Below the pieces are notes generated by a model. The model saw only the letters and a program-made list of their open reading frames with translations, was not told the origin of the DNA and ran no database searches. Of a stretch of DNA of 64,000 bases, positions 19,596-38,223 are shown in pieces (the first letter of the stretch is position 1; each line of letters begins with the position of its first letter). The position numbers and the translations under genes were made by a program. The DNA comes from an uncultured Verrucomicrobiales bacterium (GTDB lineage: Bacteria > Verrucomicrobiota > Verrucomicrobiia > JADLBR01 > JAIBCM01): the NCBI GenBank assembly GCA_964435495.1, contig CAYSZK010000001.1, positions 699-64,698 on the forward strand. Direction: 5' to 3'.

Positions 19596-21089
19596 TCAGC
19601 CGAGGCCGGCCAAGGGGCCCGTGCTGTCGGAGAACCGGATGTCAGGTACGCCCGCGGCCCCGGCGATGGACACCAGGACGTTGGCAAGCGGGGTGCCGTG
19701 GTCGAAGTTGAGGTGCCGCCCTGTCTGGAACGCCCCCCCGCCTTTGCCGGCGACAAGGAGCGGCGTGTTGACCTGGCCGTGGGCGTCGAAATGGACGGAG
19801 TCGCCTTGGACCCGGCGCGAGGGGCCATTGGTCAGCCCGGCACCGTAAAGGACGACGCAGTTGTCGAGCAGGGGAACGCCGTCGGCGTCGGGAGTCGCCT
19901 TCAGGCGGGCCAGGAAATAGGCGAGCTGTTCGACATGCAGCCGGTCGATGGCCTTGGCGCCGGCGACGCGTTCCGGGCTGCCGCCGTTGTGGGCGTACAC
20001 GCCGTGCGGGTCCTCCGGGAATCCGAGGAATCCGAAGCTGCCATAATACCCGCCCAGCCGCAACGTGGCGACGCGCGTGACGTCGGTCTGGAGCGCGAGG
20101 ACGAGGACGTCCAGCATCAGGCGCATCCGCTGGACACGGTCTTCGCCCCGCGCGCCCGAGCCGCGGTCCTGGCCCGTCTCCGGGCGGACGGCGCCTGGCG
20201 GCAGGGTGATCGGGTTGTTTTCCCATTGCACCGATTTCTCGATGCGCCGCTCCACATCGCGGATGGCCGTGGCGTATTCGTCGAGCCTCTGGCGGTCTTC
20301 GGACGGGACGCGCCCGTCGAGGGATTTCATGTCGCCGAGGATGGCGTCGAGAACCGAACGCTTGCGCCGGCGTTCGGCGTCGCGTTCGGACTTCTGCCGC
20401 CCGGAACCATCGGTGAAGAGCCGGTCAAAGACCGCGGCGGGGTCGCCTTCGGTGGGGAGGGCGTTGCCATTTTCGTCGTAGCTCAGGAACCCCATGTATC
20501 CGAGGCCTGACGCCTCGCGGGTGTTGTAGGAACCATGCCCGACGGTGAGGGCAAGCGAGGCGACGCGGGTGTTCATCCCCGCGCCCTGCGCGATGAGTTG
20601 GTCGATCGAAATTCCGTTGCGCAGCGCGACGCCGGGCGTGGAGGAGATGTTCTGGCCGGTGAGGAGAGTCCCGAGATCCTGGCCATGGCCGTTGACGACG
20701 GAGTTGGGGATCGTGTCGTGCTTGTGGTGGAGGCCGCTGAGGATGTTAAAATCCGATTTCAGGGCGCGCAGCGGTTCGAGCGTGGAGGTCAGCTCGTAAT
20801 CCTTGCCAGTGTGCGCCACGCAGCCGCCGGGCAGGACACCTCCCTTGCCCCAGTCTTTGGCGCGGACAGGGTCGGTCCACTCGCGGCAGGGAAAGAAACC
20901 ATCTTCCCCAGTCCAGACGCCGCCTTCGACGCCGAGAAAGACCGTTCGAACGGGCGCGGCGGATTTGGCGCGGCCCAGGGCGGCCAGGACCGACGGGGGC
21001 GCCATGGCGTGGAGGAACGGGAGGGCAACGCTGGCGCCGAGGCCGCGGAGGATCGTGCGCCGCGAAAGGGGAGACAGGCCGGGATGCAC
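19596..21089 (-). CDS. DUF1552 domain protein with twin-arginine signal
   Basis: The N-terminus SRRTILRGLGASVALPFL is a TAT motif, and the gene lies directly downstream of the DUF1592 gene. Confidence 0.8.
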   Translation of the reverse strand: MHPGLSPLSRRTILRGLGASVALPFLHAMAPPSVLAALGRAKSAAPVRTVFLGVEGGVWTGEDGFFPCREWTDPVRAKDWGKGGVLPGGCVAHTGKDYELTSTLEPLRALKSDFNILSGLHHKHDTIPNSVVNGHGQDLGTLLTGQNISSTPGVALRNGISIDQLIAQGAGMNTRVASLALTVGHGSYNTREASGLGYMGFLSYDENGNALPTEGDPAAVFDRLFTDGSGRQKSERDAERRRKRSVLDAILGDMKSLDGRVPSEDRQRLDEYATAIRDVERRIEKSVQWENNPITLPPGAVRPETGQDRGSGARGEDRVQRMRLMLDVLVLALQTDVTRVATLRLGGYYGSFGFLGFPEDPHGVYAHNGGSPERVAGAKAIDRLHVEQLAYFLARLKATPDADGVPLLDNCVVLYGAGLTNGPSRRVQGDSVHFDAHGQVNTPLLVAGKGGGAFQTGRHLNFDHGTPLANVLVSIAGAAGVPDIRFSDSTGPLAGLG

Positions 21090-21282
21090 AGATATAAGCT
21101 GTCAAGTTCACATGGGAAGTCCACCTAATGCTGATTCCGTCTTTGGTAGGGTGGATGCCGGCGCCGTGGCCTTCCAGCCCGGAAGCCGAACGGCTCCTCA
21201 TTGCGCGGGTGGCGGAGCGGGAATGCGAAGGGAAAACCAGCCTCGTCCCTGTGACTTCAGGCGTCCTGGCCAAAGCCCTCGG

Positions 21283-22005
21283 TCACCCCACGGCGGTCTT
21301 TGCGGAAGCGGGAACCACGACGGGCGGTTCGCGTGGCGTGGACGCTGTCGAAGAAATCGCGTGGGAGACCTTTTCAAAGCGCGTCACCGTGAACGACTTC
21401 CCCGAATGCAGTGTGACAACTCTTCGGGCGCCTTCATGCAAACCGCAAGCCTTTGCCGTTGCCGCCATCTCTTCCAGGTCGATGTACGTGAAGGACGCGC
21501 CCACACCCGCCAGGCTCCGCGCGTACGGGGATGCGCTGACCGTCGGCAAGCCGACGCTCTTTCTCTGCACCAGAGCGCAGAGCGCGCCACCGGGCCGGAT
21601 TGCGAAGGACAAGGACCTGATCGCCTCGTGGAGCCTTGTGTATTCGAATACAAGCGCCCCGAAAAAGAGGTCGAGCGGTTCCGTCAAGGAAAGCTTCTCA
21701 ACCTCGGTGCAAAGCACCTCCAATCCCCTGATTTTTCCCAGGTAACGCTGGGAAAGCCGGTGTACGTAGGCGGGGTTGACATCAACACAAACAACACGGG
21801 CCAAATCCAGCCGGGCGATTTCATCCAGTCCGTTTCCGCCCGCACACCCAACGAGCCCCACAGAGCGTGCCCCGGACATTTCGACCGCGCGGCGGAATTC
21901 CCCGGCAAGCATGGCCGCCTGCCCGACTTCCGGCAGGGCCATGTGGCTTTCGTACTCCGCCAGGTCCACGGCAAGCCATGGATTGGCTTTCATATGATCC
22001 ATCAT
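21283..22005 (-). CDS. class I SAM-dependent methyltransferase
   Basis: A glycine-rich motif I (VGLVGCAGGNGLD) and motif II/III spacing are present. Confidence 0.6.
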   Translation of the reverse strand: MMDHMKANPWLAVDLAEYESHMALPEVGQAAMLAGEFRRAVEMSGARSVGLVGCAGGNGLDEIARLDLARVVCVDVNPAYVHRLSQRYLGKIRGLEVLCTEVEKLSLTEPLDLFFGALVFEYTRLHEAIRSLSFAIRPGGALCALVQRKSVGLPTVSASPYARSLAGVGASFTYIDLEEMAATAKACGLHEGARRVVTLHSGKSFTVTRFEKVSHAISSTASTPREPPVVVPASAKTAVG

Positions 22006-22017
22006 CCCGAGGAAGAA

Positions 22018-22623
22018 TCAGGCGGCTTTCATGTAGTCGAGGCTGCCGGCGGTCTTTTCGACCTCCGGCAGGCCGTCGAGCAGGTCGCCAATGGCGTCCC
22101 AGCGGCCTTCGAGCAATCCCTGGCGGGCGGAATCGCGCAGGGAACAGGGAAAGCTTTTTCCCGCGATGCGCAGTTGGAGTTTGACGATGTCCACGGCCAG
22201 TTCCTCGGCGGGGTCGCTTTCGACGATGGCGCGGATGGCGGCGATGTCGGCGCGGCTTGCGGAGACGCAGGGCATGCCCAGGGTGATGGAGTTGCCGAAG
22301 AAAATCTCGGCGTACCCTTCGGCGACGATGGCCTTGAAACCGGCGCGGCGAATGGCCTGGGGGGCGTGCTCGCGGGAGGAGCCGCAACCGAAATTATTTC
22401 CGGTGAGCAGGATGGTGGCGCCGGCGAATCGCGGGTCGTTGAGCGGATGGGGTTTGGGCCTCTTCTGTTCGTCGTAGCGGACGTCGTGGAAAAGGAACTC
22501 GCCGAGGCCGTCGAACGTGACGCACTTCATGAAGCGCGCGGGGATGATGCGGTCGGTGTCGATGTCATCGCCGGGGACGGCGGCGCAACGGCCTTTGACT
22601 ACGTAGATTTTTGCGAGGGGCAT
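22018..22623 (-). CDS. leuD: 3-isopropylmalate dehydratase small subunit
   Basis: MPLAKIYVVKG…IDTDRIIPARF…NFGCGSSREHAPQA. The start is taken at the internal Met. Confidence 0.9.
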   Translation of the reverse strand: MPLAKIYVVKGRCAAVPGDDIDTDRIIPARFMKCVTFDGLGEFLFHDVRYDEQKRPKPHPLNDPRFAGATILLTGNNFGCGSSREHAPQAIRRAGFKAIVAEGYAEIFFGNSITLGMPCVSASRADIAAIRAIVESDPAEELAVDIVKLQLRIAGKSFPCSLRDSARQGLLEGRWDAIGDLLDGLPEVEKTAGSLDYMKAA

Positions 22624-22692
22624 GGTGGTGGGTATCCGGTTGGGCGGGGCGGGGGGGATCAGAAGTGGCCGTTGGGCCACTCGGCGGCTTGG

Positions 22693-24111
22693 TCAATGGC
22701 GTGTGTCATGGGGGAAAACTTCGCGGGCGTCGGCGACGTGGCCGGTGACGGCGGCGGCGGCAACCATGACGGGGCTCATGAGGATGGTGCGCCCCGTGGG
22801 GCTGCCCTGGCGGCCCTTGAAGTTGCGGTTGCTGGAGCTGGCGCAGATTTGGTCGCCGACGAGTTTGTCCGGGTTCATGGCAAGGCACATGGAGCAACCG
22901 GCTTCGCGCCATTCGAAGCCGGCCTCGCGGAAGACGCGGTCAATGCCCAGATCGCGGCAGTGGTTGTTGACAATCTGGGAGCCGGGGACGGCGATGGCCG
23001 TGACGCCTTCGGCGACCTTGCGCCCTTTGAGATGGCGTGCGACCTCGATGAAATCGGAGAGGCGCGCGTTGGTGCAGGAGCCGACGAAGGCGACCTGGAT
23101 GGGCGTGCCTTGGATGGGTTTGCCGGGGGGCAGTTTCATGTGTTCCAGGGCTTCGGCGACCGAGGCCTTTTCGGACTCGGGACTGCCTTCGACGGTGGGG
23201 ACGCTTTCGCTGATGAAGATCGCCTGGCCGGGGTTGATGCCCCAGGTGACGGTGGGTTCGATCGCGGCGGCGTCGAAGGTGGCAACGTCGTCGTATTTGG
23301 CGTCGGAGTCGGAAGCGACGGCGCGCCAGCGTTGCACGGCGCGGTCCCAGGCGGCGCCGGAGGGGCAATAGGGACGGCCCTTGAGATAATCGAAGGTCGT
23401 GTTGTCGGGGTTGACGTAGCCGACGCGGGCGCCGCCTTCGATGGACATGTTGCAGACGGTCATGCGTTCCTCCTGGGAGAAGCGGTCGAACACGTCGCCG
23501 CCATATTCGTAGGCGAAACCGGTGCCGCCGTTGACGCCGAGTTTGCGGATGATATGGAGAATGACATCCTTGGCATAGACGCCGGGGCGGAGCCTGCCGT
23601 TAACATTGATGCGGCGGACCTTGAGCTTGCCGATGGCCATGGTCTGGGTGGCGAGCACGTCGCGGACCTGGCTGGTGCCGATGCCGAAGGCAATGGCGCC
23701 GAACGCGCCGTGGGTGGAGGTGTGCGAGTCTCCGCAGGCGATCGTGGTGCCGGGCTGGGTGATGCCCTGCTCGGGGCCGACGATGTGGACGATGCCCTGT
23801 TTGCCGGTGGCACGGTCGAAGAACGTGACCCCGAACTCGCGGCAGTTCTTGCGCAGCTCGTCCATCATGGCCTGGGCGAGCGGGTCGCGGTAGGGTTCGG
23901 CGAATTCGTCGGTCGGGACGATATGATCGACCGTGGCGAAAGTGCGTTGGGGGAAGCGGACCTTCAGCCCGAGTTCGCGGAGCATGGAAAAGGCCTGCGG
24001 GCTGGTGACCTCATGGATGAGGTGGGTGCCGATCAGGAGTTGGGTCTGGCCATTGGGAAGCGTGCGCACCGCGTGCGCCTCCCATACTTTCTCGAACAGT
24101 GTCTTGCCCAT
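22693..24111 (-). CDS. leuC: 3-isopropylmalate dehydratase large subunit
   Basis: Aconitase-family motifs are present (…[11 protein letters not shown]…, Cys ligands [13 protein letters not shown]), and it is adjacent to leuD. Confidence 0.95.
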
Positions 24112-24145
24112 TGTTGTGTCTCCTGAATGCGGTGAACCATCTAAG

Positions 24146-24665
24146 CTACACCATCGGCGGGCGGGATGTCCAGCGCGCGATTGCCGTCTGTCGCGCCCGG
24201 TTGGTCACCGCCCCAGCGCCCAACCTGTAGCGCACTGTTGCCGGTTCGTTGACCGTGCCGGACATCCATGTGGCCGTGCCCGCGGCCACGTTGGTCACCT
24301 GGTTGAGGCCGTTGTGCTTCGCAGCGCGCAGCGTTGTGCCCGCTTTCTCCCAGAGCCGGTTGTCCGCCTTGTCGTAGCCGTAGCCGTAATCGGTCTCCGG
24401 CGTCCAGTTGCCCCCGCCGCTGTCCCGCCACACGGGCGCGGCGACGAGCTGGTTCACCTCGTCATACACCGCCCGCATTTCCCGCGCCGGGTCCACCCCC
24501 CGAATCTGCCCCCATTGCGTGATTTGGTCCAGCGCATCGTACTCGTAGGTGAACGTGCTCAGGTGCGTGGCGCCCACGCTGTTGGTGATGCCCCGGAGCC
24601 GCCGATCCCCCATGGCGTCCCAGTATCCAAAGGCCGTGGTTTGGCTGTTGGGATAGGCGCGAATC
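24146..24665 (-). pseudogene. truncated Rhs/YD-repeat core fragment (remnant of an rhs cassette)
   Basis: About 170 aa is nearly identical to an internal segment of the full Rhs (…[19 protein letters not shown]…[12 protein letters not shown]). Homology ends abruptly on both sides and there is no N-terminus, C-terminal core or toxin tip. Confidence 0.7.
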
Positions 24666-24929
24666 TCAATTCGCCCAGTGAGGCATTACAACAAAATGCG
24701 CAAAGAGGAGCCCATCAAAAACAACAGCAACAAAGAGAAGCGCGTTGCTCTTGAAATAGAAGGCGAAAGCGGTACCTATGACCGAAACACAAAATAGCGC
24801 CACATTGAAGCGACACACCAAAGAATAGGCACGGCTCGCCGATTCGTGAAGAAAGCCCATCGATGGATACAGTAATAAACATGAACTCACGAGAAGGACA
24901 CTCATTATTGCGGTTTTACACAATTTCAT
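24666..24929 (-). CDS. putative Rhs immunity protein (small hydrophobic, low-GC)
   Basis: An 87-aa membrane-like ORF overlaps the orphan-3 stop by ATGA. Local GC drops to ~45 % against a 70 % background. Confidence 0.5.
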   Translation of the reverse strand: MKLCKTAIMSVLLVSSCLLLYPSMGFLHESASRAYSLVCRFNVALFCVSVIGTAFAFYFKSNALLFVAVVFDGLLFAHFVVMPHWAN

Positions 24930-25783
24930 GGCTTACTACTCCGGTACTCAATCAGCTTGGCCTCCGCGTCATTCTTAACTTGAATAACATCGTCGCGCTC
25001 TCGGGATCCTCGCGGCAGCGATTGCTCATCGAGCAGCATCATGCCAGCCAAATCCCGCTGGAGTTCGTAAGCGGGAATCTCATTGGCCGCTTCATTGAAG
25101 AAATCATCGAAAAACCCTTGTCGCGAGTGGACTTTCTCATGTTCATCAATAATTGAACGAGCCGGGCATGACAATTCATAATATCGTCTCCCATGGAAAA
25201 CGAAATCGGTTCCCTTAATGGTTAGCGCGTATGCGTCTCCAATGGTAAGATCAATGGCGAATTTGGCGGCAACGACTGCTGCAGCGCCAACGAGTCCGGC
25301 CCCAATAACCGGCACGACTGCAAACTCCCCTGTGGAATCGCGGTAACTTAGCGCACGATCGCCCGCATAGGCATACACGTTGATGCCCCCATTCTCCGCG
25401 ATTCGATCCCTCGAGACCCACCTCCCCAACTCCGCCGAATACGCCCGATACGGGGCCAAGTGCAACCCACTCAGTGCGTGGAAATAGTGCCCCGTAAAGG
25501 CGAAATCCGCATCCCGATCCCCTGCCGTCTTCGTCACCCGGCCCCAGGGATCGTAGCTGTAGCCGGCGCGCAGCGCGCCACTGTTGTCCACCATCTCCCT
25601 CACGGAGCCCAGGTGATCCCGCGTGTAGAAAAGTTTCTCTCCGCCTCCGGTCTCTACCCCCTGTGGGAAAAACTGTTTCACCACCGCACCGCTCGAGTCC
25701 CGCTCCTCGCACAACTCCAGCCCGCACCAGACAAACCGTTTCACCGCGTTGGTCACCGCCCCGGCCTTCTCCACGATCTGCAC
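24926..25783 (-). CDS. orphan rhs C-terminal cassette 3 (Rhs core 3' end plus divergent toxin tip)
   Basis: The N-terminal ~110 aa match the main Rhs core end ([16 protein letters not shown]…YTRDHLGSV…[10 protein letters not shown]). It then diverges into a unique ~150-aa C-terminus. Confidence 0.7.
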   Translation of the reverse strand: MQIVEKAGAVTNAVKRFVWCGLELCEERDSSGAVVKQFFPQGVETGGGEKLFYTRDHLGSVREMVDNSGALRAGYSYDPWGRVTKTAGDRDADFAFTGHYFHALSGLHLAPYRAYSAELGRWVSRDRIAENGGINVYAYAGDRALSYRDSTGEFAVVPVIGAGLVGAAAVVAAKFAIDLTIGDAYALTIKGTDFVFHGRRYYELSCPARSIIDEHEKVHSRQGFFDDFFNEAANEIPAYELQRDLAGMMLLDEQSLPRGSRERDDVIQVKNDAEAKLIEYRSSKP

Positions 25784-25870
25784 CCATCGGTCCAGACCGT
25801 CGTAGCTGATCTGGGTCGTGTTGGTGCCTCGGGTGATCTGGGTAAGCCGGTTCTTCGCGTCCCACTCATC

Positions 25871-26155
25871 TTAGACCAAATCCAATCTAACCCGCTTCCG
25901 AACGCTGGCGGACTGAGTTCGAATAAAACTCATAATGTCTTCAAAGGACGCTTTGGCAAGTGTCAGATGGTCGCCTGAGTGATGTTCTTCAAGCCAAGTC
26001 GTTGCCTCTTGAAAATCTCTCCATGCGGGGATTGAAAGAACGTCATCAGGCAATTTCCTTAACACATAGCCTGCCGCGCCACGTTCACGGACTACCCACA
26101 CATGGCCACTGCCATTCTTAAACTGTTGAAAGAAAATGACCTTTTCAGAATTCAT
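25871..26155 (-). CDS. putative Rhs immunity protein (low-GC small ORF)
   Basis: A 94-aa ORF lies immediately downstream of the orphan-2 toxin tip, in an AT-rich pocket. Confidence 0.45.
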   Translation of the reverse strand: MNSEKVIFFQQFKNGSGHVWVVRERGAAGYVLRKLPDDVLSIPAWRDFQEATTWLEEHHSGDHLTLAKASFEDIMSFIRTQSASVRKRVRLDLV

Positions 26156-26260
26156 GCCATTATTTCAAAAAGCCTTATTGCTCCTCAAGATTCATCAAAT
26201 CCCCTAGCGCACTTGACCGCGGGTCATCGCCCGAGCCTTCGATGTAGCCCCCGTTCCCAA

Positions 26261-27289
26261 TCAAACCTCCATATGGTATGTCTTTGTATTTGACAGTTTC
26301 TCCGGTGGGTTGACCGCCTTTGATAATCGGCAACTCATCATCGGGATCAAATGTCTTGCTGGGAGGCAGGCCCTGCCTGGCGGGCTTGCCGGACACGGTT
26401 CCCGGTCTCCAAGCGACTCATGAAACAAGGGTCCAAGAAAACCAAGCACCGCCGCCGCGGCCGCCAGTTTGGTCCGCAAGTCTGGCGGCCTTGGCGTCGG
26501 ACTTTCCGGGGTCGGCGCGTCCGCGTTGTCGGGTTCGACAAGGAGCAGCGTCGCCACAACCGCCGCGATCACCAGCGGATTGTCCCCTTTCGGGTCAGTG
26601 TAGTTCACCGGGTTATTGGCAAGGGCGCCGTAGATGTTTATCCCTCCCCGCTCGCCAATGGCGTCCCGCCGGAGCCACCTTCCCAGAACCGCGCTGTAGG
26701 GCCTGCCGAGTTTCGGAAACTGCAGTTCTGACAGGCCATGCGCATACATCCCCTGAAACAAGAATTCCGCGTCCCGATCCCCCGCCGTCTTCGTAACACG
26801 CCCCCAGGGATCGTAGCTGTAGCTCGCACGAACTGCCCCATTCGTGTCCACGAGTTCCCGCACTGAGCCCAGATGATCCCGCGTGTAGAACAGTTTCTCC
26901 CCGCCTCCGGTCTCCACCCCCTGCGGAAAGAACCGCTTCACGACCGCGCCGCTCTGGTCCCGTTCCTCACACAACTCCAGCCCGCACCAGACAAACCGCT
27001 TGACCGAGTTCGTTGTGGCTCCGGCCTTCTCCACAATCTGGACCCAGCGGTCCAGACCATCATAGCTGATCTGGGTCGTGTTGGTGCCACGGGTGATCTG
27101 GGTGAGCCGGTTCTTCGCGTCCCAGGAAAGGATGCGGTCATAGACCGCATCTATAGTCAGGTTGCCGTCGGCGTCGTACGTGAGGCTTTGCGAGGGGCTG
27201 TTGGTACCGATCACGATCCTGGTCCCCCCTAGGGCCGGCGTTCGTCGCCAAGCGCACCAGCGGCTCCGCTTATACTTGGCGTAAAGCAT
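26261..27289 (-). CDS. orphan rhs C-terminal cassette 2; the toxin tip is probably in the overlapping frame 26175..26396 (apparent frameshift)
   Basis: Homology to the Rhs core runs from about 27200 (IVIGTNS…) through DPKGDNPLV…HESLGD. The in-frame tail is junk-like. The -1 frame instead gives a plausible Pro/Asp-rich tip (…PSKTFDPDDELP…GGYIEGSGDD…). Confidence 0.65.
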   Translation of the reverse strand: MLYAKYKRSRWCAWRRTPALGGTRIVIGTNSPSQSLTYDADGNLTIDAVYDRILSWDAKNRLTQITRGTNTTQISYDGLDRWVQIVEKAGATTNSVKRFVWCGLELCEERDQSGAVVKRFFPQGVETGGGEKLFYTRDHLGSVRELVDTNGAVRASYSYDPWGRVTKTAGDRDAEFLFQGMYAHGLSELQFPKLGRPYSAVLGRWLRRDAIGERGGINIYGALANNPVNYTDPKGDNPLVIAAVVATLLLVEPDNADAPTPESPTPRPPDLRTKLAAAAAVLGFLGPLFHESLGDREPCPASPPGRACLPARHLIPMMSCRLSKAVNPPEKLSNTKTYHMEV

Positions 27290-27480
27290 ATCGTCAACTT
27301 TTTAGATCCAGCAGAAAGAGTTCCCATTTCTTCGCTTAAGTGCCAATGCCCGGATGGTCCCTCCTTGCCAATAATGCGTTCACAAATCTCGGCCAGAAAC
27401 CTCAATCCTGCTTCGTTAGCCACAATATCAACCTCGCTGGATTCCTCATCTAACGAGACATTAATCTCTATATTGCTCAT
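27229..27480 (-). CDS. putative Rhs immunity protein
   Basis: It is 83 aa, has an ATGA overlap with the orphan-1 stop and sits in a low-GC island. Confidence 0.5.
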   Translation of the reverse strand: MSNIEINVSLDEESSEVDIVANEAGLRFLAEICERIIGKEGPSGHWHLSEEMGTLSAGSKKLTICFTPSISGAAGALGDERRP

Positions 27481-29075
27481 TTCGGATGCCAATTGACCCC
27501 GTCTGGAGACCACTCCTGTTGACTCCCATCACGCAAATGCCCGCGATCCCAATGCGGCTGACCACCTCGTTTATCGTGAGGGCTCTTATCCCAGTGATAA
27601 TGCCAATCATCATCTCTCTGGTCCATTTTATTGTTTGGATCAAAGCTACTGCCTCCACCTGAATCTGATGGACAGATGTCATTTGAATCCCGAAATGACT
27701 CATGAAACAAGGGTCCAAGAGAACCAAGCACCGCTGCTGCGGCAGCGAGTTTTGTCCGCAAGTCCGGCGGCCTTGGCGTCGGACTGTCCGGGGTCGGAGC
27801 ATCCGCGTTGTCGGGTTCGACAAGGAGCAGCGTCGCCACAACCGCCGCGATCACCAGCGGATTGTCCCCTTTCGGGTCAGTGTAGTTCACCGGGTTATTG
27901 GCAAGGGCGCCGTAGATGTTTATCCCTCCCCGCTCGCCAATGGCGTCCCGCCGGAGCCACCTTCCCAGAACCGCGCTGTAGGGCCTGCCGAGTTTCGGAA
28001 ACTGCAGTTCTGACAGGCCATGCGCATACATCCCCTGAAACAAGAATTCCGCGTCCCTATCCCCTGACGTCTTCGTCACCCGGCCCCAGGGATCGTAGCT
28101 GTAGCTGGCTCGGACTGCGCCACTGTTGTCCACAAGTTCCCGCACCGAGCCAAGATGATCCCGCGTGTAAAACAGCTTCTCGCCGCCGACGCCCTCGGCC
28201 CCCTGGGGAAAGAAGCGCTTCACCACCGCGCCGCTCTGGTCCCGTTCCTCGCACAGATCCAGCCCGCACCAGACGAACCGCTTGACCGAGTTCGTTGTGG
28301 TTCCGGCTTTCTCTAGGATCTGCACCCAGCGGTCCAACCCATCGTAGCTGATCTGGGTCGTGTTGGTGCCGCGCGCGATCTGGGTGAGCCGGTTCTTGGC
28401 GTCCCAGGAGAGGATGCGGTCACAGACCGCATCTACAGTCAGGTTCCCATCCGCGTCATAGGTGAGGGTTTGCGAGGCGCTGTTGGTCCCGATAACGATC
28501 TTGTAGTGGTTCGTCGCGGTGTTGGTGTTGCCGTCGGTGGCGGTGATCGTGAGCAGGTTCTCACCGGGCACCAGGTTGTTGAGCAGCGCGGAAAAACTGC
28601 TTCCTTCCGTCTGTCGCGCCTTGTTGGTCACCGCCCCACCGCCCAAGCGGTAGCGCACTGTGGCCGGTTCATTGACCGTGCCCGACATCCATGTGGCCGT
28701 GCCCGCGGCCACGTTGGTCACCTGGTTGAGGCCGTTGTGCTTCGCAGCGCGCAGCGTTGTGCCCGCTTTCTCCCAGAGCCGGTTGTCCGCCTTGTCGTAG
28801 CCGTAGCCGTAATCGGTCTCCGGCGTCCAGTTGCCCCCGCCGCTGTCCCGCCACACGGGCGCGGCGACGAGCTGGTTCACCTCGTCATACACCGCCCGCA
28901 TTTCCCGCGCCGGGTCCACCCCCCGAATCTGCCCCCATTGCGTGATTTGGTCCAGCGCATCGTACTCGCAGATGAAGGTGCTCAAGTGCGTTGCGCCCAC
29001 GCAGTTGGTGATGCCCCGGAGCCCACGGTCCCCCATGGCGTCCCAGTAACCGAAGGCCGCGCTTTGGCCGCACAA
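27477..29075 (-). CDS. orphan rhs C-terminal cassette 1 (YD repeats, Rhs core end, unique His/Trp/Asp-rich tip)
   Basis: The 532 aa are nearly identical to the main Rhs over ~460 aa. They diverge after the HESFRD motif into a lower-GC tip (…DDDWHYHWDKSPHDKRGG…). Confidence 0.75.
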   Translation of the reverse strand: MCGQSAAFGYWDAMGDRGLRGITNCVGATHLSTFICEYDALDQITQWGQIRGVDPAREMRAVYDEVNQLVAAPVWRDSGGGNWTPETDYGYGYDKADNRLWEKAGTTLRAAKHNGLNQVTNVAAGTATWMSGTVNEPATVRYRLGGGAVTNKARQTEGSSFSALLNNLVPGENLLTITATDGNTNTATNHYKIVIGTNSASQTLTYDADGNLTVDAVCDRILSWDAKNRLTQIARGTNTTQISYDGLDRWVQILEKAGTTTNSVKRFVWCGLDLCEERDQSGAVVKRFFPQGAEGVGGEKLFYTRDHLGSVRELVDNSGAVRASYSYDPWGRVTKTSGDRDAEFLFQGMYAHGLSELQFPKLGRPYSAVLGRWLRRDAIGERGGINIYGALANNPVNYTDPKGDNPLVIAAVVATLLLVEPDNADAPTPDSPTPRPPDLRTKLAAAAAVLGSLGPLFHESFRDSNDICPSDSGGGSSFDPNNKMDQRDDDWHYHWDKSPHDKRGGQPHWDRGHLRDGSQQEWSPDGVNWHPK

Positions 29076-29113
29076 CGCCCTCTGGTAAGCTCATATGAAT
29101 GTCATGACCGGCT

Positions 29114-29467
29114 CTAAGCCACATAAATGCGCCCGTCCAAGTGAACTTGAAACGATTCAAAGTCCCTCGAACTATTGAAAACATCTAGTGAGTAACTATT
29201 CTCAAACATCAATATCATTCCACCTTCCTCGGTGCGCGTCGCGTGCTCACACGAAAGCCCAACTAGCTGACAAATCGCCGACGCATGTATTGTGTAGTCG
29301 CTGAATTCCGATCGGAGTGTGATGCCATGCTTAAGCAGGCATGCCCCCTCAATGGACACCCTGCTGTCTTCAAAATTCAAAATGCATTGGTGTTCACTAA
29401 TGCAGACTTGAAGCACCTTCTTGCCAATAAGGGGACTTAGATCGATCTCAACAGGCAATCCATTCAT
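29114..29467 (-). CDS. putative cognate immunity protein of the full-length Rhs
   Basis: A ~117-aa ORF lies in an AT-rich island 4 nt downstream of the rhs stop. Confidence 0.5.
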   Translation of the reverse strand: MNGLPVEIDLSPLIGKKVLQVCISEHQCILNFEDSRVSIEGACLLKHGITLRSEFSDYTIHASAICQLVGLSCEHATRTEEGGMILMFENSYSLDVFNSSRDFESFQVHLDGRIYVA

Positions 29468-29471
29468 AAGG

Positions 29472-32400
29472 CTACCTAGGGGGAAGGGGAACATGCGTCT
29501 GGGCCTGAAACTCAGGCCTGCTCACGTTGGAAGGAGGCTTTCCAGTAGCGGGATTTACTGGCTGGCCATTCTGATTGTATTGCCTCCAATATCCGTTTGG
29601 ATACTGCTCAGTTGGCGACATTTCTCGAATGGTATGTCCAGGTGGAAGCTCGTCTGGCGTGGGAGGTTCTTGTGGAGAATTAGTCGGCTCCTTGAAATAT
29701 GGACTAGGCTTTGGAGATGCGGGGTTTACGGGACACGGCTCCCCGTCTCCAAAAGACTCATGAAACAATGGTCCAAGAAAACCAAGCACAGCCGCCGCGG
29801 CCGCCAGTTTTGTCCGCAAGTCCGGCGGCCTTGGCGTCGGACTGTCCGGGGTCGGAGCATCCGCGTTGTCGGGTTCAACAAGGAGCAGCGTCGCCACAAC
29901 CGCGGCAACAACCAGCGGGTTGTCCCCTTTCGGGTCAATGTAGTTCACCGGGTTGTCGGCAAGGGCTCCGTAGAGGTTGATGCCGCCCCGCTCGCCAATG
30001 GCGTCCCGCCGCAGCCACCTGCCGAGCAAGGGGCTGTAGGGCCTGCCGAGCTTCGGAAGTTGCAGCTCTGACGAGCCATGCTGATACATGCCCTGAAACA
30101 GGAAATCCGAATCCCGATCCCCTGCCGTCTTCGTAACACGCCCCCAGGGATCGTAGCTGTAGCTCGCACGAACTGCCCCATTCGTGTCCACGAGTTCCCG
30201 CACTGAGCCAAGATGATCTCGCGTGTAAAACAGCTTCTCGCCGCCGACGCCCTCGGCCCCCTGCGGAAAGAACCGTTTCACGACCGCGCCATTTCCATCC
30301 CGCTCCTCGCACAGTTCCAGCCCGCACCAGACAAACCGCTTCACCGCGTTGGTCACGGTCCCGGCCTTCTCCACAATCTGGACCCAGCGGTCCAGGCCGT
30401 CGTAGCTAATCTGGGTTGTGTTCGTGCCTCGCGTGATCTGCGTGAGCCGGTTCTTGGCGTCCCAGGAGAGGATGCGGTCATAGACCGCATCTACAGTCAT
30501 GTTCCCATCGGCGTCATAGGTGAAGGTTTGCGAAGCGCTGTTAGTGCCGATCACGATCGTGTAGCGGTTTGTTGCCGTGTTGGTATTTCCATCCTTGGCT
30601 GTGATCGTCAACGTGTTGCTGCCCACGACCAAATTGGTCAGCAACGCCGAAAAACTGGTTCCTTCCGTCTGTTGCGCTTGATTGGTCACCGCTCCTGTAC
30701 CGAGCCGGTATCGCACCGTCGCCGGTTCGTTCACCGTGCCGGACATCCATGTGGCCGTGCCCGCGGCCACGTTGGTCACCTGGTTGAGGCCGTTGTGCTT
30801 CGCAGCGCGCAGCGTTGTGCCCGCTTTTTCCCAGAGCCGGTTGTCCGCCTTGTCGTAGCCATAGCCGTAATCGGTCTCCGGCGCCCAGTTCCCCCCGCCG
30901 CTGTCCCGCCACACGGGCGCGGCGACGAGACGGTTCACCTCGTCAAAGACCGCCCGCATTTCCCGCGCCGGGTTCACCCCACGAATCTGCCCCCATTGCG
31001 TGATTTGGTCCAGCGCATCGTACTCGTAGGTGAAGGTGCTCAGGTGCGTGGTGCCCACGCTGTTGGTGATGCCCCGCAGCCGCCGATCCCCCATGACATC
31101 CCAGTAACCGAAGGCCGTGGTCTGGCCGTTGGGATAGGCGACGCCCGCCAGCAGCGGCGACACCGGGTTTTCGTAGGTGTAGGCGAAGTCGCCAAGGGCA
31201 TTGGCCGCGTTTGTGGCGCGCCCTTGGCTGTCAAACGCCCAAGCGGCCACCACGCCGTTGATGGCGCGGTTGGTCATGCGCCCCAGTCCGTCATAGCCGT
31301 AGGAGACAAGATCATTGGCCCATGGCCCGTCTTCGGCCACAAGCTGGCCGGCGTTATCGAAAGTGTAGGCGGTGGCGCCGATGCCGTCGGCCATGTTAGT
31401 GCGCCAGTTGCGCCGGTCATAGCCGAAACTCACCGGGGCCAGGCCTGTGCCGGTGATGTTGGTGAGGTTCCGAGCGGCGTCGTAACGGAATTCGTTGGTC
31501 TGGCCCCGGCTGTTGACCGCCGCCGCCAGCAACCCGCGCGGGTCATAGGCGTAGGCGATCCGGTTGCCGTCGCTCCACTCCCGGTTGGTGACGCGGTTGA
31601 GTGCGTCGTAGGCAAAGCGCGTGGCGTTGCCGTTGCCATCGCGCAGAACGGTGAGATTGTCGGCGGCGTCATACTGCATCTGAATCCAGCTTCCGTCGGG
31701 GCGGCCCTCGGCCACCATCCGTTTGTTGCCGTCGTAGGCGAACACCGTCTTGCGCCCAAGCCGGTCGGTCACCGAGGCCGGCACGCAGCATTCCCACTCG
31801 TACTCGTCGAAGGTCCCGTCAGGGCGGGTGGCGCGAATGAGCCGGTTGAGATTGTCGTAATCAAAAGACCGCGTTCTTCCCGCGGCGTCGGTGGAAGCCT
31901 GGACCCGTCCCACTGCGTCATAGGCCGCCGTGGCGACGGCCAGGCCCTGGTGGGTGACATTGGTTACGCGGAAGAGGTGGTCGCGTTGGAGGGCGGTGAC
32001 TTCGCCCAGCGCGTTGGTGACCGCCGCAGGCAGGCCGTTGGGCGCGTAGGCAACGCGGGTGGCGCGGTTGAGCGCGTCGGTGATCAAGACGGGCTGGCGC
32101 GCAGCGTTGTACTCGATCCGGGCGGCGCTGTTGCCCGCGCCGTCGATGATGTTGGTCACGTCCAGGCCGTTGGCGGCGTAGAACCAGCGGTTGGTGTTGT
32201 TGCGGGCATCGACGCGTTCGATGGGCATACCCTGGTCGTTGTAGGCCATCCGGACCATTACGTTGGCGGGGTCAATGATGCGGCGGGGATGGCCGTCGAG
32301 GTCGAAGTCCATGAACTGCCAGCGGGTGCCGTCGGCGCGCTTGATTTCCGACAAGAGCGCTTTGCCTTCGACGACCGAGTAGCGCAGTTCGGTCTTGGGC

Positions 32401-34721
32401 GCCTGTTTGGCAGGCAGCGGGGATTCCATCTGCCGGCCATCGCGAATCCAACTGAACCGGCTGTACCCATTGTAATAATACTCCATCCGGTTGTTCTCCG
32501 GGGTTGTCACGGTGATGCGGTAGTTCTCCCACATGGCGGCGCCGGTGGCGGGGTAGTAGTTGGCGGCGCGCACGCCGTCGGTGGGTTCGGTGAGAAAACC
32601 GGTGGCGCCCATCGGGGTGGTGACGCGGTCGAGGAAAAGATTCCCGTTATTGGTGGTGTAGCCATAGGAGTAGGCGACGCCGCCCATGTCGGTTTGGTTG
32701 GTGAGGTTGCCGGAGGCGCTGTAAAGGAACGTGGCCTGGCGTCCAAAGGGATCGGCAATCGCCTGGATTTTTCCCTGGGCGTTATACGACACCGTGAAAT
32801 CGCGGTTGAGGGCGTCGGTGACTTTGAGAATCTGGCCCGCGGCGTCGTGGGTGACGCGCACGGTGTTGGTGTGGGGGTCGCGGATTTCCAGCAGCAGCGG
32901 CGTGGCGCCGCCGCCGCCCATGGCCGCCGGGATGCCGTAGGCGTAGATCATGCCCTCGGGAGTCTGGACTTGATAGGCGCTGGCGGCGGTCTTGCGCAGC
33001 GTCCACGCCCCGTGTTCGATGGGCGGGAGATAGCCGCCGACGCCGTCGGGGGTGTAAACGTCGCGGCGCCCGTCGGGCATGATGACGGTGACCTTGCCGT
33101 CCGGCCCAACCAGGGCGTAGGACGCGTAGTTCAGCGTCCATTTGTTGCCGACGGGCCGGGCTTGGTTGAGGGCGTCCTGGCTGTTGTAGGTGAGGTCGAA
33201 GGAAACCGCGGGGCCGAGCCCGGAGTTGTGCCACAGAGGCGTGTCCAACACGCAAAGGTTGAGATTCGCCGGATTGATGTCCCAAACGGGGAGGCCGGAA
33301 CCGGCGGGCAACCCGCCGCCGCCAGACTCGTCACGTTCGCCCTGGCATCGGCGTTTGTCGGAGCCCAGATCGTCCTCAGGGCGGGGAATGCCACAGCAGC
33401 CGCCGAGGACCTCGGTTTCGGAAGGTGTCGCGGCGGGAAACGCCCGCGCGGCGCCGGGATCGAAGACCACTGCCAAGCCGCTCCATTGGGAATCAAACTG
33501 CTCGAGCGTGAGGGTGACGGTTTGCTTGAGGCGGGGGTCGTAGATCGTGAGGAGAGCCGGGGCGGCGCCCGATTTTTCCAGACCGCTGACGACGACGAAG
33601 TGGAGGTCGCGGTAGTGGGCGATGAAAGGGCGGGGGAGACTGGCGATGCCGCCGGCGTCGGCCTGGACGGCGGCGGTCTCAAGGCCGTGACTTTCGGCAA
33701 ACCGCTGGAGTTGGCCGATGGTAAAACCCTCGTCGCCGGGGGCAGGGAGGCGGCGGACCTCGCGCGCCTCGCGGATGCGCCCGCGCAATTCAAGCACACG
33801 GGCGACGGCTTCGGCGCCGCAATCGCGCAGCTCGGCGAGGTGGCCTTGGAAATGGTTCAACTGGCGAATCCAGTTCTGGGCGTAGGTGCGGCGTTCCCAC
33901 TCCGTCTCCACGGCCAGCATATCGGCAAAAGCGGCGCGTGAATTGGCTATTTCGCCCCGTTCCATCAGGAGGACCGCGCGGCGGAGCCTGGCTTTCTGGC
34001 GCATGGCAAAAGCCGAGTCCTGGGCCGTCTCCGGAATGGCGGAAAGGATGGCGTTGAAGTGGCCCTCGGCTTCGTCCCAGCGCCCCGTGAATTGCGCCTC
34101 GCAACCCAGGTGCAGCCGCGCCTCACCGGCCCACGGACTGTCCGGGAACTCGCGCAAGTGCGCATGGAAGACCGGAACGGCCTCCGCATACCGGTGCGCA
34201 TTCCACAGATTCATCGCGCGGGCGAAGTGAAGATTCACCCGCTCCATCCGCGCGCGCTGTCCGGCATCCTTCAGCCGTAGCGGCTCGGCGGGCGCGGTGG
34301 GCGTCAACGGGCTGCCCAATTGTCCGGCCATTCGGAGTTCGCGTTCGGTGGGCACGCGGTCGAGGCGCAAATCGAGCAGGCTGATTGCGCCTTCCACGCC
34401 GCCATAGAGGCTGGCGCGCTGGCCGCGGCGTTCAGGCGGGTCGCGGCGTTCGAGGTCGCGGATGCGTTCTAGGGTGAGAGGCGGCTCGATCCTGGCGGTT
34501 GGCGCCTGCGGGGCGGGCTTCGAGCAAGCGGCCAGGAGCACGAACGCCATCCAGTGGAGATGCGGTCTGTGACAGCGTCGGACGCATTCCCGGTTCTGGG
34601 ATGCGTGGCTGGCATGGTTCGGGCGGTTTGTGGCGGATCGTCGGACGGCATGGCACACTTCCATGGAGAACGACCGGATGCGGTCACAAGCCGAATCGAC
34701 AGAATAGGGAGTCGGGATCAT
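29472..34721 (-). CDS. rhs: Rhs-family polymorphic toxin (TPR region, C39-peptidase-like domain, YD/RHS repeats, RHS core, variable C-terminal tip)
   Basis: It has many YD repeats and an Rhs core end (YTRDHLGSV…YSYDPWGRV…[34 protein letters not shown]). A papain-like Cys…His region ([12 protein letters not shown]…[13 protein letters not shown]) lies in the N-terminus. The ATG at 34721 overlaps the upstream gene's stop (ATGA). Confidence 0.9.
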
Positions 34722-37700
34722 GGCAGGGACTCCGCGTTGGCGGGGGTTTGAAGCTGGATCACAGGGGCCGACACATCACCGGGCACGAAACCGGGCGGTG
34801 CAGAACGGGCAGGGTCGAGAGGGAATGCGTCGAGCGCGTCGTTCACGCCGTCACCGTCTGAATCCGTGCGGAATGGGCTTGTTCCTTTGGCGGCCTCCTG
34901 GCTCAGGCTCAAGCCGTCGCCGTCCGGGTCGCCGCTGGCGGGATGCAGGCCCGCGGCCCACGCGGCGCCATCGAGGAGCCCGTCTCCGTTGGTGTCGGGA
35001 TTCTGAAAATCGCTGGGGGGCGAGAGTGTAAGCTCGGCGAAGTCGGAGAGGCCATCGCCATCGGTATCGCCGCCTGAATAGACAGTGACGGAGACGGGCG
35101 TGGACACGGTGGAGACACCGCGGTCGTCGGTGGCGACGGCCTTCAGGATGGCCGCGCCGAGCGGCGCGTTGGTCCATTGAAGGGTGTAGGGTGACGAGAT
35201 ATCCTCGCCGATCTTATTCGTGCCGGAAAAGAACTCGACCTTGGCGACGTAACCGTCGGGGTCTGAAGCGGTGGCGGCCAGCCAGAGCGTTCCGGTCGCA
35301 TCGGTGGCGGCGGCGCCGGCGGCAGGAGAGGTGATGGCCACCGTGGGCGGATAACTGAAGACGTTGAACCCGGTGATGCGCGTTGGGGTTAAACGGTTGT
35401 CGCTGTCGCCCAGGCCGAGGCGTCCGCTTCCCCCGGAGCCCCACGCCCACACAAAACCCGCCCCGTCGATGGCGAGGCTGTGATGGGCGCCCGCGGCGAT
35501 GGCGATGGCGTTGCTGAGCCCCGGCGCGGCGGCCTGGCGCGGTGTTTCCACATCGCCGCCAGTCGTGCCGTCGCCCACCGCCCCATACTCCCGGCGTCCC
35601 CACGCCCAGACCGTGCCGTCGCTTTTCAAGGCGAGCATGTGATCATTGCCCGCGGCGATGGCGGTAGCGTTGGAGATGCCGGCGACAACTGTGGGATTGC
35701 CATCAAATCCGTTGGTGATTCTGCCGAGCTGCCTGTCGCTGTTCTCGCCCCATGTCAGCACCCGTCCATCCGAACGCAGCGCCGCGGCAAACTGGTAACC
35801 AGCGGCGATTTCGATCATTGTGCCGCTCCCCGACCATGAAGTCAGGGCGTCATATATGGCGGTCGTGTCGTTCTTGACCTGGCGCATGCTGTTGTCGCCG
35901 GTGGCGCGCGGGTTGGGCGTGGTGACGGTTTCGGCGATGATATGGCTGTTGCGGCGTCCGGCGGCCACGCGAAGCGTTCCAACCGCCGAGAATGTGATTA
36001 AGCGCGGCTGATTTGTCCATGTGGACGCTCCGGAGTCCCCTTTCCCCAACTGGCCCCGTTCGTTGCCGCCCCATGTGTACAGCCTTCCGTTGGTTGTGAC
36101 ACACATGGAATGGTCCTCCCCGGCCGAGACCGCGGCGGCGTTGGGATGATGTTGACGGTGACCGGGCTCTGCTTGTCCTCGTCGTCCCCGTTTCCCAAAC
36201 GGCCTTCAGCGCCGGCGCCCCAGGCCCGCAGCCGCCCGTCGTGGCGCACCGCCAGGCAGTGGAGGGAACCCGCCGCCACCGACCGGACCAGGGAAATCCC
36301 CGAAACCTGCGCGGGACGGTTCGTAGAGCCCGCGTCCGAACCGTTCCCCATCTGGCCGGAGGAGTCTGAACCCCAGGTCCACACCGTTCCATCGTACATC
36401 AGCGCGATGGAATGCTCGTCGCCGCCGTCGATGCCGACGGCTCCGGTCTTGTCGTCGTCGGAAATGGTGTTGGTTGCCGTGCCGGGAGAACCGATGTTGT
36501 AGCCGGAACTGGTGGAGATCGCCACGGCGACGGTTTCATTGGTTTCAACCACGGTGTCATCGAGTACGGAGACCTGAAGATTCGTGAAACTTGCTCCGGC
36601 CGGGATCACCACGGGCGAGCTGATCGCGCGATAGTCGCCGCCGTTGCTGGCGGAGCCGCCGATGGAAAAGTTGACCGCCAACGGCCCGAACGTGTTGCCG
36701 GTGCGGGCAAAGGTGAACACTCCGGAATTGAATCCAGGCTCCGACGCCGATGGATCGGAGGCGGCCACCGTCACCGTGGGTTTGTTGCCGCTGGACTGCG
36801 CGAAAGCCTCAAAAATCACCGCCTGTCCGACCGCCTGGGTGCTCATCGCCAGGTCCACGGCCTGGGCGTAGATCGTTTGCAGCGCCCCGGTGGGGCACAT
36901 CTTGAGAAACACGGAAGCCTCGCCGTTGGCGGCCGTGCGGACCGTTCTGGAGGCCAGTTGCGAGCCGCTGCCCTTGTTCGTGGCGAACAACCCGCCAACG
37001 GGCGAGATCGAGAACGTAACCGGCGCGTTGGTGAGAACATTGCCCACGGCGTCGCGCACCAGCACCACGAGTGGATTGGCCGCGAAAGCGCCGGTGTTCG
37101 TGGTTTGGCGGTCTCCGCTGGCCAGCGACAGCAACGGGGCCTGGCCATTGAAAAAGTCGTTCGGCAGCGTGCCCGCTTGGAACTCCGCCAGGTTTGAGGC
37201 GCCGTCGCCATCGTAATCGCCGGCGGCCGGCTGGTTCGTGCCGCCAAGCCATTCGTATTCCCATGCGTCGTCCATGCCGTCGGCATCGGCATCGCCGCCC
37301 ACGATCGTCACGGAGACCGGAGTGGTGTTGGTGGTCGCGCCGCCGTTGTCGGTGGCGCGGGCGGTGAGGACATGGGCGCCGAAGCCGGCATTGGTCCACT
37401 CCACCGCGTACGGGGCGAGGCCGTCCTCGCCCAGCTTGTTGGTCCCCGCAAAAAACTCGACCTTTGCAACCGTCCCATCCGTGTCGGCGGCGGACGCGCG
37501 CAGCCAGACGCTGGCGGAATTTAGGACCACCGCGCCATCCATCGGGGCGTTCCAGGCCACCGATGGCGGGATGTTGCCGTCAATGAGCCCATGGCCCGCC
37601 ACGGCGGAAAAGGATGCCGCCTGTTCGGAAATGGGATCATCCCCAGCTCCAAACAACCCCGCAAGCGCCGTTTCGGGCAGAGCCACGTTCATCACGCCGC

Positions 37701-38223
37701 GCGGCGACCAGTTTGTGCCGTCGGTGGAGGTGAAAGCCGCCACCGCCTTGCCGCCGCGGTCCAGGCGCAGCCAAAGGGGCGGGTTGGCCAGGGTCCAGTT
37801 GGTCAATTGCCAATCCGCGCCATCGGCAGTGCGCCACGCCATGGACCACGCGGCGATTTGGGAGGGGAGCGCCGCGGACACCAGGAAAAGGGAAGCGTAG
37901 GCGGCATCGGGCGTGTTCGTGGCGCGGATCATGAGGCCGGCGTTGGCCAGCCGGCCAGGCGAAGCGTTGGAAACCTGGACCAAAGCCGAAATGCTGCCCG
38001 TGGTTCCCATGGGCGCGTGGCGGAAGAGAATCGCGTCGGCGCCGGGACCCAGTTCCGTGTTTCTGGCGGCGATCGCAGCCTCGTTGGAAGAAACGGTGAA
38101 CGTTCCCGACTCGCCCTGCAAAGCGGGAACGGGGGTGATAACCGAATTGGTCCAGGTCTGCGCGTGCGCCACGGCGGCGGCGAGCGCGGCGGCGGGCAGG
38201 AGCGGGCGCAAGAACGGCTTCAT
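34718..38223 (-). CDS. secreted multidomain protein: signal peptide, Ig-like/thrombospondin-type-3 Ca-binding segments, Calx-beta, RCC1 beta-propeller repeats; apparent frameshift at ~36143-36146
   Basis: [21 protein letters not shown] is a signal peptide. A Calx-beta-like block is present (FTFARTGNT…[14 protein letters not shown]). RCC1 repeats (…HS/HCLAL…DGxVWxWGxxxxGQLG) continue seamlessly from the 1121-aa ORF frame into the 462-aa ORF frame at an atcatccc|aacgcc C-run. Confidence 0.7.

Follow-up and report, generated by a model that had tools for sequence, protein, structure and literature searches.

The window analysed here, 64 kb of DNA from an uncultured Verrucomicrobiales bacterium (GenBank assembly GCA_964435495.1, contig CAYSZK010000001.1), carries next to leuC what is in all likelihood an Rhs polymorphic-toxin locus of Verrucomicrobiota (Opitutales-like), with one expressed toxin gene and a series of displaced cassettes downstream of it. 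The genes of the array all lie on the minus strand, in a window with an overall GC content of 0.663. An earlier description made from the letters and their open reading frames (ORFs), referred to below as the sequence-only reading, had proposed an array of displaced rhs C-terminal (CT) and immunity modules at this site; the proposal held on every testable point, namely the YD shell, the core end, the tails and the small genes.

The array is led by a full-length rhs gene (29472–34721), identified from the ORF map and from Pfam/NCBIfam domains, whose product of 1749 residues is also present in an NCBI record; it belongs to a cluster of three members, the other two being orphans of the same contig. 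It is followed on the same strand, as had been claimed, by a candidate immunity gene, which is assigned to the DUF6188 family from PF19686 and from the neighbours of tip homologues (immunity gene 1; 117 residues from the ATG at 29467, 29114–29467, within ORF 29114–29494). Orphan cassette 1 comes next, an ORF of 532 residues (27477–29075) comprising a core fragment, a linker and a tip (27480–27695), and is followed by immunity gene 2 of the Imm32 family (PF15566; 83 residues from the ATG at 27480, 27229–27480, within ORF 27229–27513). In orphan cassette 2, core fragment and linker occupy 26391–27221 by blastn (ORF 26261–27289, 342 residues), translation of alternative frames places the real, frameshifted tip at 26175–26396, and the ORF map gives candidate immunity gene 3 at 25871–26155 (94 residues; searches found neither a family nor relatives). 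Orphan cassette 3, delimited like the first by blastn and alignment, is an ORF of 285 residues (24926–25783) with a core fragment and a tip (24929–25330); candidate immunity gene 4, recognized from the neighbours of related tips, follows it (24666–24929, 87 residues with three hydrophobic segments). The last element is a core remnant (ORF 24146–24613, 155 residues), which is tipless as had been described, although its homology by blastn spans 24184–24659 rather than 24146–24665. The remnant ends 72 nucleotides (nt) upstream of the leuC ATG.

Comparison of the downstream modules with the main gene by blastn showed where each of them rejoins the Rhs core. Orphan 1 (29070–27693) corresponds to residues 1198–1657 of the main protein with 87.8% identity over 1382 nt, orphan 2 (27221–26391) to residues 1387–1664 with 88.0% identity, and orphan 3 (25864–25502) to residues 1420–1540 with 83.8% identity. 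The remnant (24659–24184) corresponds to residues 1194–1353 with 92.9% identity and is 95.5% identical to orphan 1. These breakpoints match the abrupt restarts inside the core that had been read at FGYWD, IVIGTNS and VQIVEKAG. In every module core homology resumes 7–44 nt past the stop codon of the preceding small ORF, so that the array consists of clean units of core fragment, tip and small gene. The orphan modules are homologous only to the 3' part of the core, on the same strand, with neither the N-terminal part nor start signals of their own, and their ORFs begin at fortuitous TTG, ATG or GTG codons inside or just ahead of the homology. Identity between orphans (91.6–95.5%) is higher than that between orphans and the main gene (84–93%), which fits successive arrivals via recombination in the core. 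GC content is 0.62–0.65 in the core pieces, 0.49–0.54 in the tips and 0.45–0.49 in the small ORFs. ATGA overlaps join the orphan-1 stop to the start of immunity gene 2 (27480/27477) and the orphan-3 stop to the start of immunity gene 4 (24929/24926), bearing out the claim of a small low-GC ORF after each tip, with two such overlaps. A scan for promoters and terminators gave no signals above shuffled expectation, and no tRNA or Rfam feature was found near the array.

The core repeats are far beyond chance. A tandem arrangement of this sort might be produced by an assembler that joined, head to tail, variants of a single rhs 3' end from different strains in a metagenome; the source is apparently a draft contig with singleton clusters, two apparent frameshifts occur within 12 kb, and the repeats are 84–97% similar, which is enough to confuse assemblers. 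Tip and small gene, however, are unique to each module, the residue at which the core restarts differs between modules (1198, 1387, 1420 and 1194), and the junctions past the small-ORF stop codons are clean at 7–44 nt. The copies differ by 5–16% and hence are not collapsed repeats, and the same architecture was found in unrelated contigs (L089, L085–87 and L090). We consider an artefact of assembly extremely improbable.

The shell of the main protein was recognized by PF05593 (RHS_repeat, E = 1e-59, six stretches) and TIGR01643 (YD_repeat, E = 1e-42). It is preceded by DUF6531, a plug domain commonly found N-terminal to the Rhs shell (33057–33209; PF20148, 24.9 bits, cut-off 24.1), and closes with an Rhs-associated core domain (29925–30155; TIGR03696, E = 4e-15). 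In alignments, the core end coincides with that of solved Rhs, TcC and teneurin-like shells (8h8a, 8qjd; TccC3/YenC2), and the PxxxxDPxG signature of core ends is kept, with Asp rather than Leu as the residue after Gly. In the cleavage-deficient chain of 8h8b, an Asp to Ala exchange lies at the Asp that aligns to that of the main core, from which the catalytic Asp can be taken to be present in the main Rhs protein.

As the core also aligns to TccC3/YenC2 and to teneurin-like shells, a Tc-toxin-like or teneurin-like YD protein, directed at eukaryotes or used for adhesion rather than against bacteria, had to be weighed, and Verrucomicrobia are often associated with eukaryotic hosts. Neither an SpvB nor a TcdB_mid domain nor a TcA/TcB partner is present, however. 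Orphan arrays that contain immunity genes are characteristic of antibacterial systems, and here a dedicated small gene stands after every tip; one of these belongs to Imm32, which has been described as polymorphic-toxin immunity and in no other role (PMC3482391). A eukaryote-directed or adhesive role is thus very improbable, and the locus is better read as an antibacterial toxin array.

At its N-terminus the main protein has a lipobox-like LLAAC following a basic stretch, tetratricopeptide (TPR) repeats at residues 164–226 (34044–34232; weak Pfam matches to TPR_2/TPR_12 that stay below cut-off, and NCBIfam matches to YbgF/BamD-like TPR) and a Peptidase C39-like domain at residues 298–423 (33453–33830; PF03412, E = 4e-16), which is separated from DUF6531 by a Gly-rich stretch. 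The Cys (DCG) and His (LHFVVV) of the C39 domain correspond, on alignment to the ComA peptidase domain (8hf4/3k8u, E = 5e-8), to its catalytic residues, which we take to be C17 and H96; the position of the oxyanion Gln is occupied by His. The domain is fused to the Rhs shell with no ATP-binding cassette (ABC) exporter, and the NCBIfam models for peptidase-containing ABC transporters (PCAT) match the peptidase part only, far below their cut-offs. One possibility is that it serves self-release from an anchor. C39-like domains are listed in the survey of polymorphic toxins as C-terminal toxin domains (PMC3482391), whereas that of the main Rhs protein is N-terminal to the shell. No relative of the TPR–C39 region was found in a scan of metagenome contigs, and no literature linking C39 to Rhs N-termini was found.

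Searches of the main protein with Pfam and NCBIfam models gave no match to PAAR, DUF4150, prePAAR or VgrG, and among the ORFs of the 64-kb window the same models found no type VI secretion system (T6SS), Hcp, PAAR or VgrG gene and no linkage to an Eag chaperone. Linkage to a T6SS was rejected on this domain content. It could be argued that the protein is a T6SS effector with its secretion genes elsewhere in the genome, given that most characterized proteobacterial Rhs toxins are T6SS cargo and that the part of the genome examined is 64 kb. The N-terminus is nonetheless made up of TPR repeats and a C39 peptidase rather than of PAAR-type domains, and the genes upstream encode RCC1/Ig-repeat proteins; we regard a T6SS effector as unlikely. 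Since a lipobox-like LLAAC is present and PAAR/VgrG features are lacking, export is probably Sec-dependent and T6SS-independent. The RCC1/TSP3 gene upstream ends in a stop codon that overlaps the ATG annotated for rhs (ATGA, 34718–34721), and M1, M20 and M58 are candidate rhs starts. This overlap suggests that the RCC1/TSP3 gene and rhs are co-transcribed.

Downstream of the core motif the C-terminal cargo amounts to about 150 residues, made up of a linker and a tip of about 80–90 residues. The linker, of about 59 residues and ending LFHESFGD (29745–29921 in the main gene), was defined by alignment of the main protein with orphans 1 and 2, in which it lies at 27696–27872 and about 26415–26590, respectively. 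It contains two hydrophobic stretches of about 15 residues each (linker residues 1–18 and 38–54), separated by a Pro-rich spacer, and has no Pfam match. In the orphan-3 tip and its relatives a single longer hydrophobic helix stands where the others have the linker. Segments of this kind may help the released cargo to enter or cross a membrane. Hydrophobic stretches after the core end were also noted in unrelated relatives, namely P0012, members of alignment A3 and an 866-residue Rhs fragment in contig L089.

Four unrelated tails follow the core, directly after its end in orphan 3 and after the linker in the main protein and orphans 1 and 2. This agrees with the earlier statement that the tips differ, except that the tip annotated for orphan 2 proved to be out of frame, the real one being in ORF 26175–26396. 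That the tips resemble no recognizable toxin fold was likewise confirmed, no Pfam, NCBIfam or PDB match being returned at E ≤ 10. When Pfam and NCBIfam models were run on all tips and small ORFs, Imm32 and DUF6188 were the sole matches. Profile–profile comparison revealed no relation between the families of the main tip and the orphan-1 tip. Among the products of the locus that were looked up, no close relatives in other genomes were found, and the sole multi-member cluster was that of the main Rhs protein with two orphans. The small ORFs are kept beside homologous tips elsewhere (DUF6188 in L081–L083, Imm32 in L084–L088 and three-transmembrane (three-TM) proteins in L090–L092). Conserved gene order thereby supports three putative toxin/immunity pairs: main tip with DUF6188, orphan-1 tip with Imm32 and orphan-3 tip with a three-TM protein. 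Of the four small genes put forward as immunity candidates, two fall in named families (Imm32 and DUF6188), immunity gene 4 lacks detectable homology and the third has no relatives.

The main tip, 90 residues long (29475–29744), has 10 relatives among 5.8 billion clusters. The family motif includes ..AQTHVPLPP, and R40, T45, Y48, P49, G51, Y52, W53, Q61, P65, T67, P70, T83, H84 and P88 are invariant. In 3/3 outside contigs (L081, L082 and L083) a DUF6188 gene lies directly after the tip homologue. Immunity gene 1 itself matches PF19686 (DUF6188) with 29.4 bits against a gathering threshold of 27.1 (E = 1e-6) and is 30–44% identical to these DUF6188 neighbours. Because all four homologues begin MNGLP or MYGLP, immunity gene 1 most likely starts at ATG 29467 and not at 29494, which places its ATG 4 nt after the rhs stop codon, with no overlap. 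No mention of DUF6188 was found in the literature. An AlphaFold2 model of the main tip (predicted local distance difference test score (pLDDT) 83) shows a small beta-beta-alpha-beta unit, and the tip is perhaps a small beta/alpha enzyme, such as a nuclease. Among the closest known systems for it is PT7(Bc)/PIM7, in which the polymorphic toxin is a metal-dependent DNase of 76 residues (PDB 8owu; bioRxiv 10.1101/2021.10.19.465003).

Relatives of the main tip were also seen as short stand-alone ORFs together with a DUF6188 gene (L081 6547–10510, L082 933–2336 and L083 304–2511), in surroundings that held PemK/RelE/BrnT toxin–antitoxin genes, a PT-TG cassette or an integrase, and two of the relatives (P0008 and P0009) have signal-peptide-like N-termini of their own. 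The stand-alone ORFs indicate that the tip also travels outside Rhs proteins.

For the tips of orphans 1 and 3, a single concatenated query was used, and the matched segments were told apart by reading the matches. The orphan-1 tip has three relatives, all placed after Rhs-core-end motifs, and they share with it the motif FDPNxxEDQxDDxWHYHWDxxPHxKRGGxPHWDRG..EWSPDGxxWxPK. An Imm32 gene follows in 3/3 distinct relatives, represented by five contigs (L084, L085–87 and L088). Immunity gene 2 matches PF15566 (Imm32) with 33.5 bits against a gathering threshold of 27 (E = 4e-8) and is 36–46% identical to the three Imm32 neighbours, with which it has a conserved H..H and other residues in common. 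Imm32 is a polymorphic-toxin immunity family for which Ntox12, Ntox37 and Ntox7 are listed as partners (Zhang et al., PMC3482391). The orphan-1 tip resembles these Imm32-linked toxins in being a small domain with Imm32 always behind it, and its KRGGxPHWD loosely resembles the '[KR], Hx[DH]' signature of Ntox37 (PMC3482391). Membership of Ntox12, Ntox37 or Ntox7 is unsupported: the tip has no Pfam match at E ≤ 10, and none is precomputed for its three relatives. We infer that the orphan-1 tip is a small His/Trp-rich domain of the Imm32-associated kind.

For the orphan-3 tip, a word-indexed search found only the tip itself, and a full HMMER search of 1.8 billion representatives recovered 13 remote relatives (34–42% identity), several of which are clearly placed after Rhs core ends. 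Across the 14 sequences G40, T41, Y50, H64, E65, H68, E84 and A87 are invariant and form an HExxH...E motif. As in gluzincin-type metallopeptidases and Tox-MPTase, the HExxH is accompanied by a downstream Glu, which in the window's own sequence stands 16 residues past the second His, and as in the minimal representatives of these the motif lies on predicted consecutive helices after a beta-hairpin. In the AlphaFold2 model (pLDDT 88) a hydrophobic helix and a hairpin are accompanied by three further helices, and generic helical or membrane proteins are all that the model matches. A small three-TM ORF follows the related tip in three of four outside contexts (L090, L091 and L092), as it does in the window; in the fourth, L089, the ORF after the tip encodes 49 residues with one TM segment. 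Pairwise identity between the small proteins of the window, L090 and L091 is low (23–29%), and immunity gene 4 is supported only as a member of a common type of small membrane protein, without detectable homology. On these features the orphan-3 tip would be a membrane-anchored metal-dependent hydrolase, whose action a small polytopic membrane protein would block.

A second possibility for this family, though a minority one in our estimation, is a helical toxin that damages membranes by forming pores. It would suit a model in which a long hydrophobic helix is joined to a helical bundle and whose only matches are generic helical or membrane proteins, and also a partner of about 90 residues with three TM segments; the immunity proteins of pore-forming colicins are of a similar small three-TM kind. 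Such a toxin would not be expected to keep H64, E65, H68 and E84 invariant in 14 sequences at 29–40% identity, an invariance typical of HExxH...E metal sites, and the metal-dependent hydrolase is preferred. Another genome was seen to carry an array (contig L089, 4869–9891; GCA_028713655.1, JAQTNW010000066.1) whose Rhs fragments belong to the same subfamily (VQIVEKDNT..FIWCGMKICEERD..) and include an HExxH...E tip. The design of the leuC-adjacent array is thus not unique.

In orphan 2, the annotated tip (..REPCPASPPGRACLPARHLIPMMSC..) is out-of-frame sequence, as was evident on translation of the other frames. ORF 26175–26396 carries the FDP motif that also precedes the orphan-1 tip and reads ..KTFDPDDELPIIKGGQPTGETVKYKDIPYGGLIGNGGYIEGSGDDPRSSALGDLMNLEEQ up to a stop codon located 19 nt ahead of the third small ORF. 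The frames of core and tip have been split by a 1-nt insertion or deletion within 26345–26417, plausibly located in a short run of C. The frameshifted tip was searched together with small ORFs 3 and 4 as one concatenated query, which returned no match. The exact 94-residue product of the third small ORF also occurs on a 1016-bp Logan contig (SRA-derived) and is missing from the NCBI annotation. Upstream of the array, the RCC1/Big_7 ORFs 35998–39363 and 34718–36106 (minus strand) overlap at 35998–36106, and an RCC1 blade (..SPVTVN) continues in the other frame; the two look like parts of a single gene that a frameshift near 36100 has interrupted.

If the locus works as established Rhs biology would predict, the Rhs shell would enclose the cargo, the aspartyl autoprotease would cut at ..IDPKG, the tip would be toxic to neighbouring bacteria, and the DUF6188 protein would bind and neutralize the main tip in the producer. 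The orphan cassettes would be silent, because the N-terminal 1200–1400 or so residues are missing from them and so are start signals, and their immunity genes could still shield the cell from neighbours armed with those toxins. Through core stretches that are 84–92% identical, homologous recombination would be able to exchange the tip and immunity gene in use for those of an orphan. Tips and immunity genes, being low in GC, would have come by horizontal transfer, each arrival displacing the earlier tip downstream, and the remnant beside leuC would be the trace of an even older event.

Several points weigh against this picture. Toxicity, neutralization, secretion and recombination are all deduced from sequence, and a T6SS could be encoded elsewhere in the genome, outside the 64-kb window. 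The hydrophobic stretch ahead of the lipobox, at just about 8 residues, makes a weak export signal. Sequence and profile searches gave the tips no Pfam (E ≤ 10), NCBIfam or PDB match beyond the Rhs core, no zincin was retrieved with the orphan-3 model by fold or hidden Markov model despite its HExxH...E motif, and relatives of the orphan-2 tip and of the third small ORF could not be detected. Some insertions or deletions may be assembly errors, because the orphan-2 frameshift is accompanied by a second one in the RCC1 gene just upstream; the data do not distinguish decay from error.

In its overall architecture the locus is a textbook case that specialists would find unsurprising, and its value lies in its parts. 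Three rare, undescribed families of candidate C-terminal toxins with no Pfam or PDB match are each tied by gene order to a partner, giving toxin/antidote pairs that are ready for testing, and a function, that of an immunity protein, is proposed for DUF6188 for the first time. The Rhs protein of this Verrucomicrobiota bacterium lacks T6SS features and is unusual in its architecture, with a C39 peptidase at the N-terminus and a hydrophobic linker after the core, both of which bear on how Sec-dependent Rhs toxins of diderms exit the producer and enter the target. A bolder proposal, which we put forward as speculative and rather doubtful, is that the locus represents an undescribed, T6SS-independent design for Rhs delivery: a lipoprotein-type Rhs anchored or released via TPR and C39, a hydrophobic hairpin that carries the toxin across the target membrane, and three toxin folds with no known relatives. 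Were this true, DUF6188 and the small three-TM proteins would be new immunity families.

Housekeeping flanks had been taken to delimit the island. On one side leuC (22693–24111; Aconitase, E = 7e-162) and leuD (22018–22680), both on the minus strand, do adjoin the array, but the opposite flank consists of genes for surface-type proteins with RCC1, Big_7, Calx-beta, TSP3 and Ig-type repeats. Insertion of the array next to leuC is consistent with a comparison of 80 leuC loci from other species, in none of which (0/80) a Rhs gene was found upstream of leuC, although the test is a weak one, the best LeuC matches (82%; Verrucomicrobia/Opitutae metagenome-assembled genomes) being syntenic for leuCD only. 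Beyond leuCD no synteny was detected in the compared loci, where tblastx was noisy owing to high GC. The array is lineage-specific.

Two long plus-strand ORFs lie antisense to leuCD (20803–24126, 1107 residues) and to rhs (30213–33941, 1242 residues); their products are Ala/Gly/Arg-rich and of low complexity, and they look like high-GC artefacts, not genes. At 40757–46278 (minus strand), a response-regulator/adenylate-cyclase gene stands beside that of a hybrid histidine kinase of 1507 residues (dCache, HAMP, GAF, PAS, HisKA, two REC domains and Hpt), unrelated to the array.

The closest parallel to the arrangement as a whole is offered by the enterobacterial rhs loci, of which Dickeya dadantii RhsA/B, rhs-main/rhs-orphan of Salmonella Typhimurium LT2 and the rhs elements of E. 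coli reportedly include orphan rhs-CT/rhsI arrays. Here as there, 3' core fragments lie downstream of rhs and its immunity gene on the same strand, and every fragment has a CT that differs from the rest and an immunity gene to go with it; the cores offer homology for recombination, and the tips are low in GC. The present locus differs in belonging to Verrucomicrobiota, in having no PAAR, VgrG or T6SS linkage and in its N-terminal TPR repeats and C39 peptidase; its core ends in DPKGD and not DPxGL, a hydrophobic linker joins core and tip, and the tips are of undescribed families. With regard to export, the nearest likeness is to Sec-dependent, T6SS-independent Rhs/YD toxins such as WapA of Bacillus subtilis, which make up the 'T2SS' (type II secretion system) class of polymorphic toxins (PMC3482391). 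A presumed signal-peptide export, a YD shell, a C-terminal toxin and an adjoining immunity gene are common to both, but WapA is a Gram-positive protein attached to the cell wall, whereas the protein described here belongs to a diderm host, carries a C39 module and is predicted from its lipobox-like signal to be exported.

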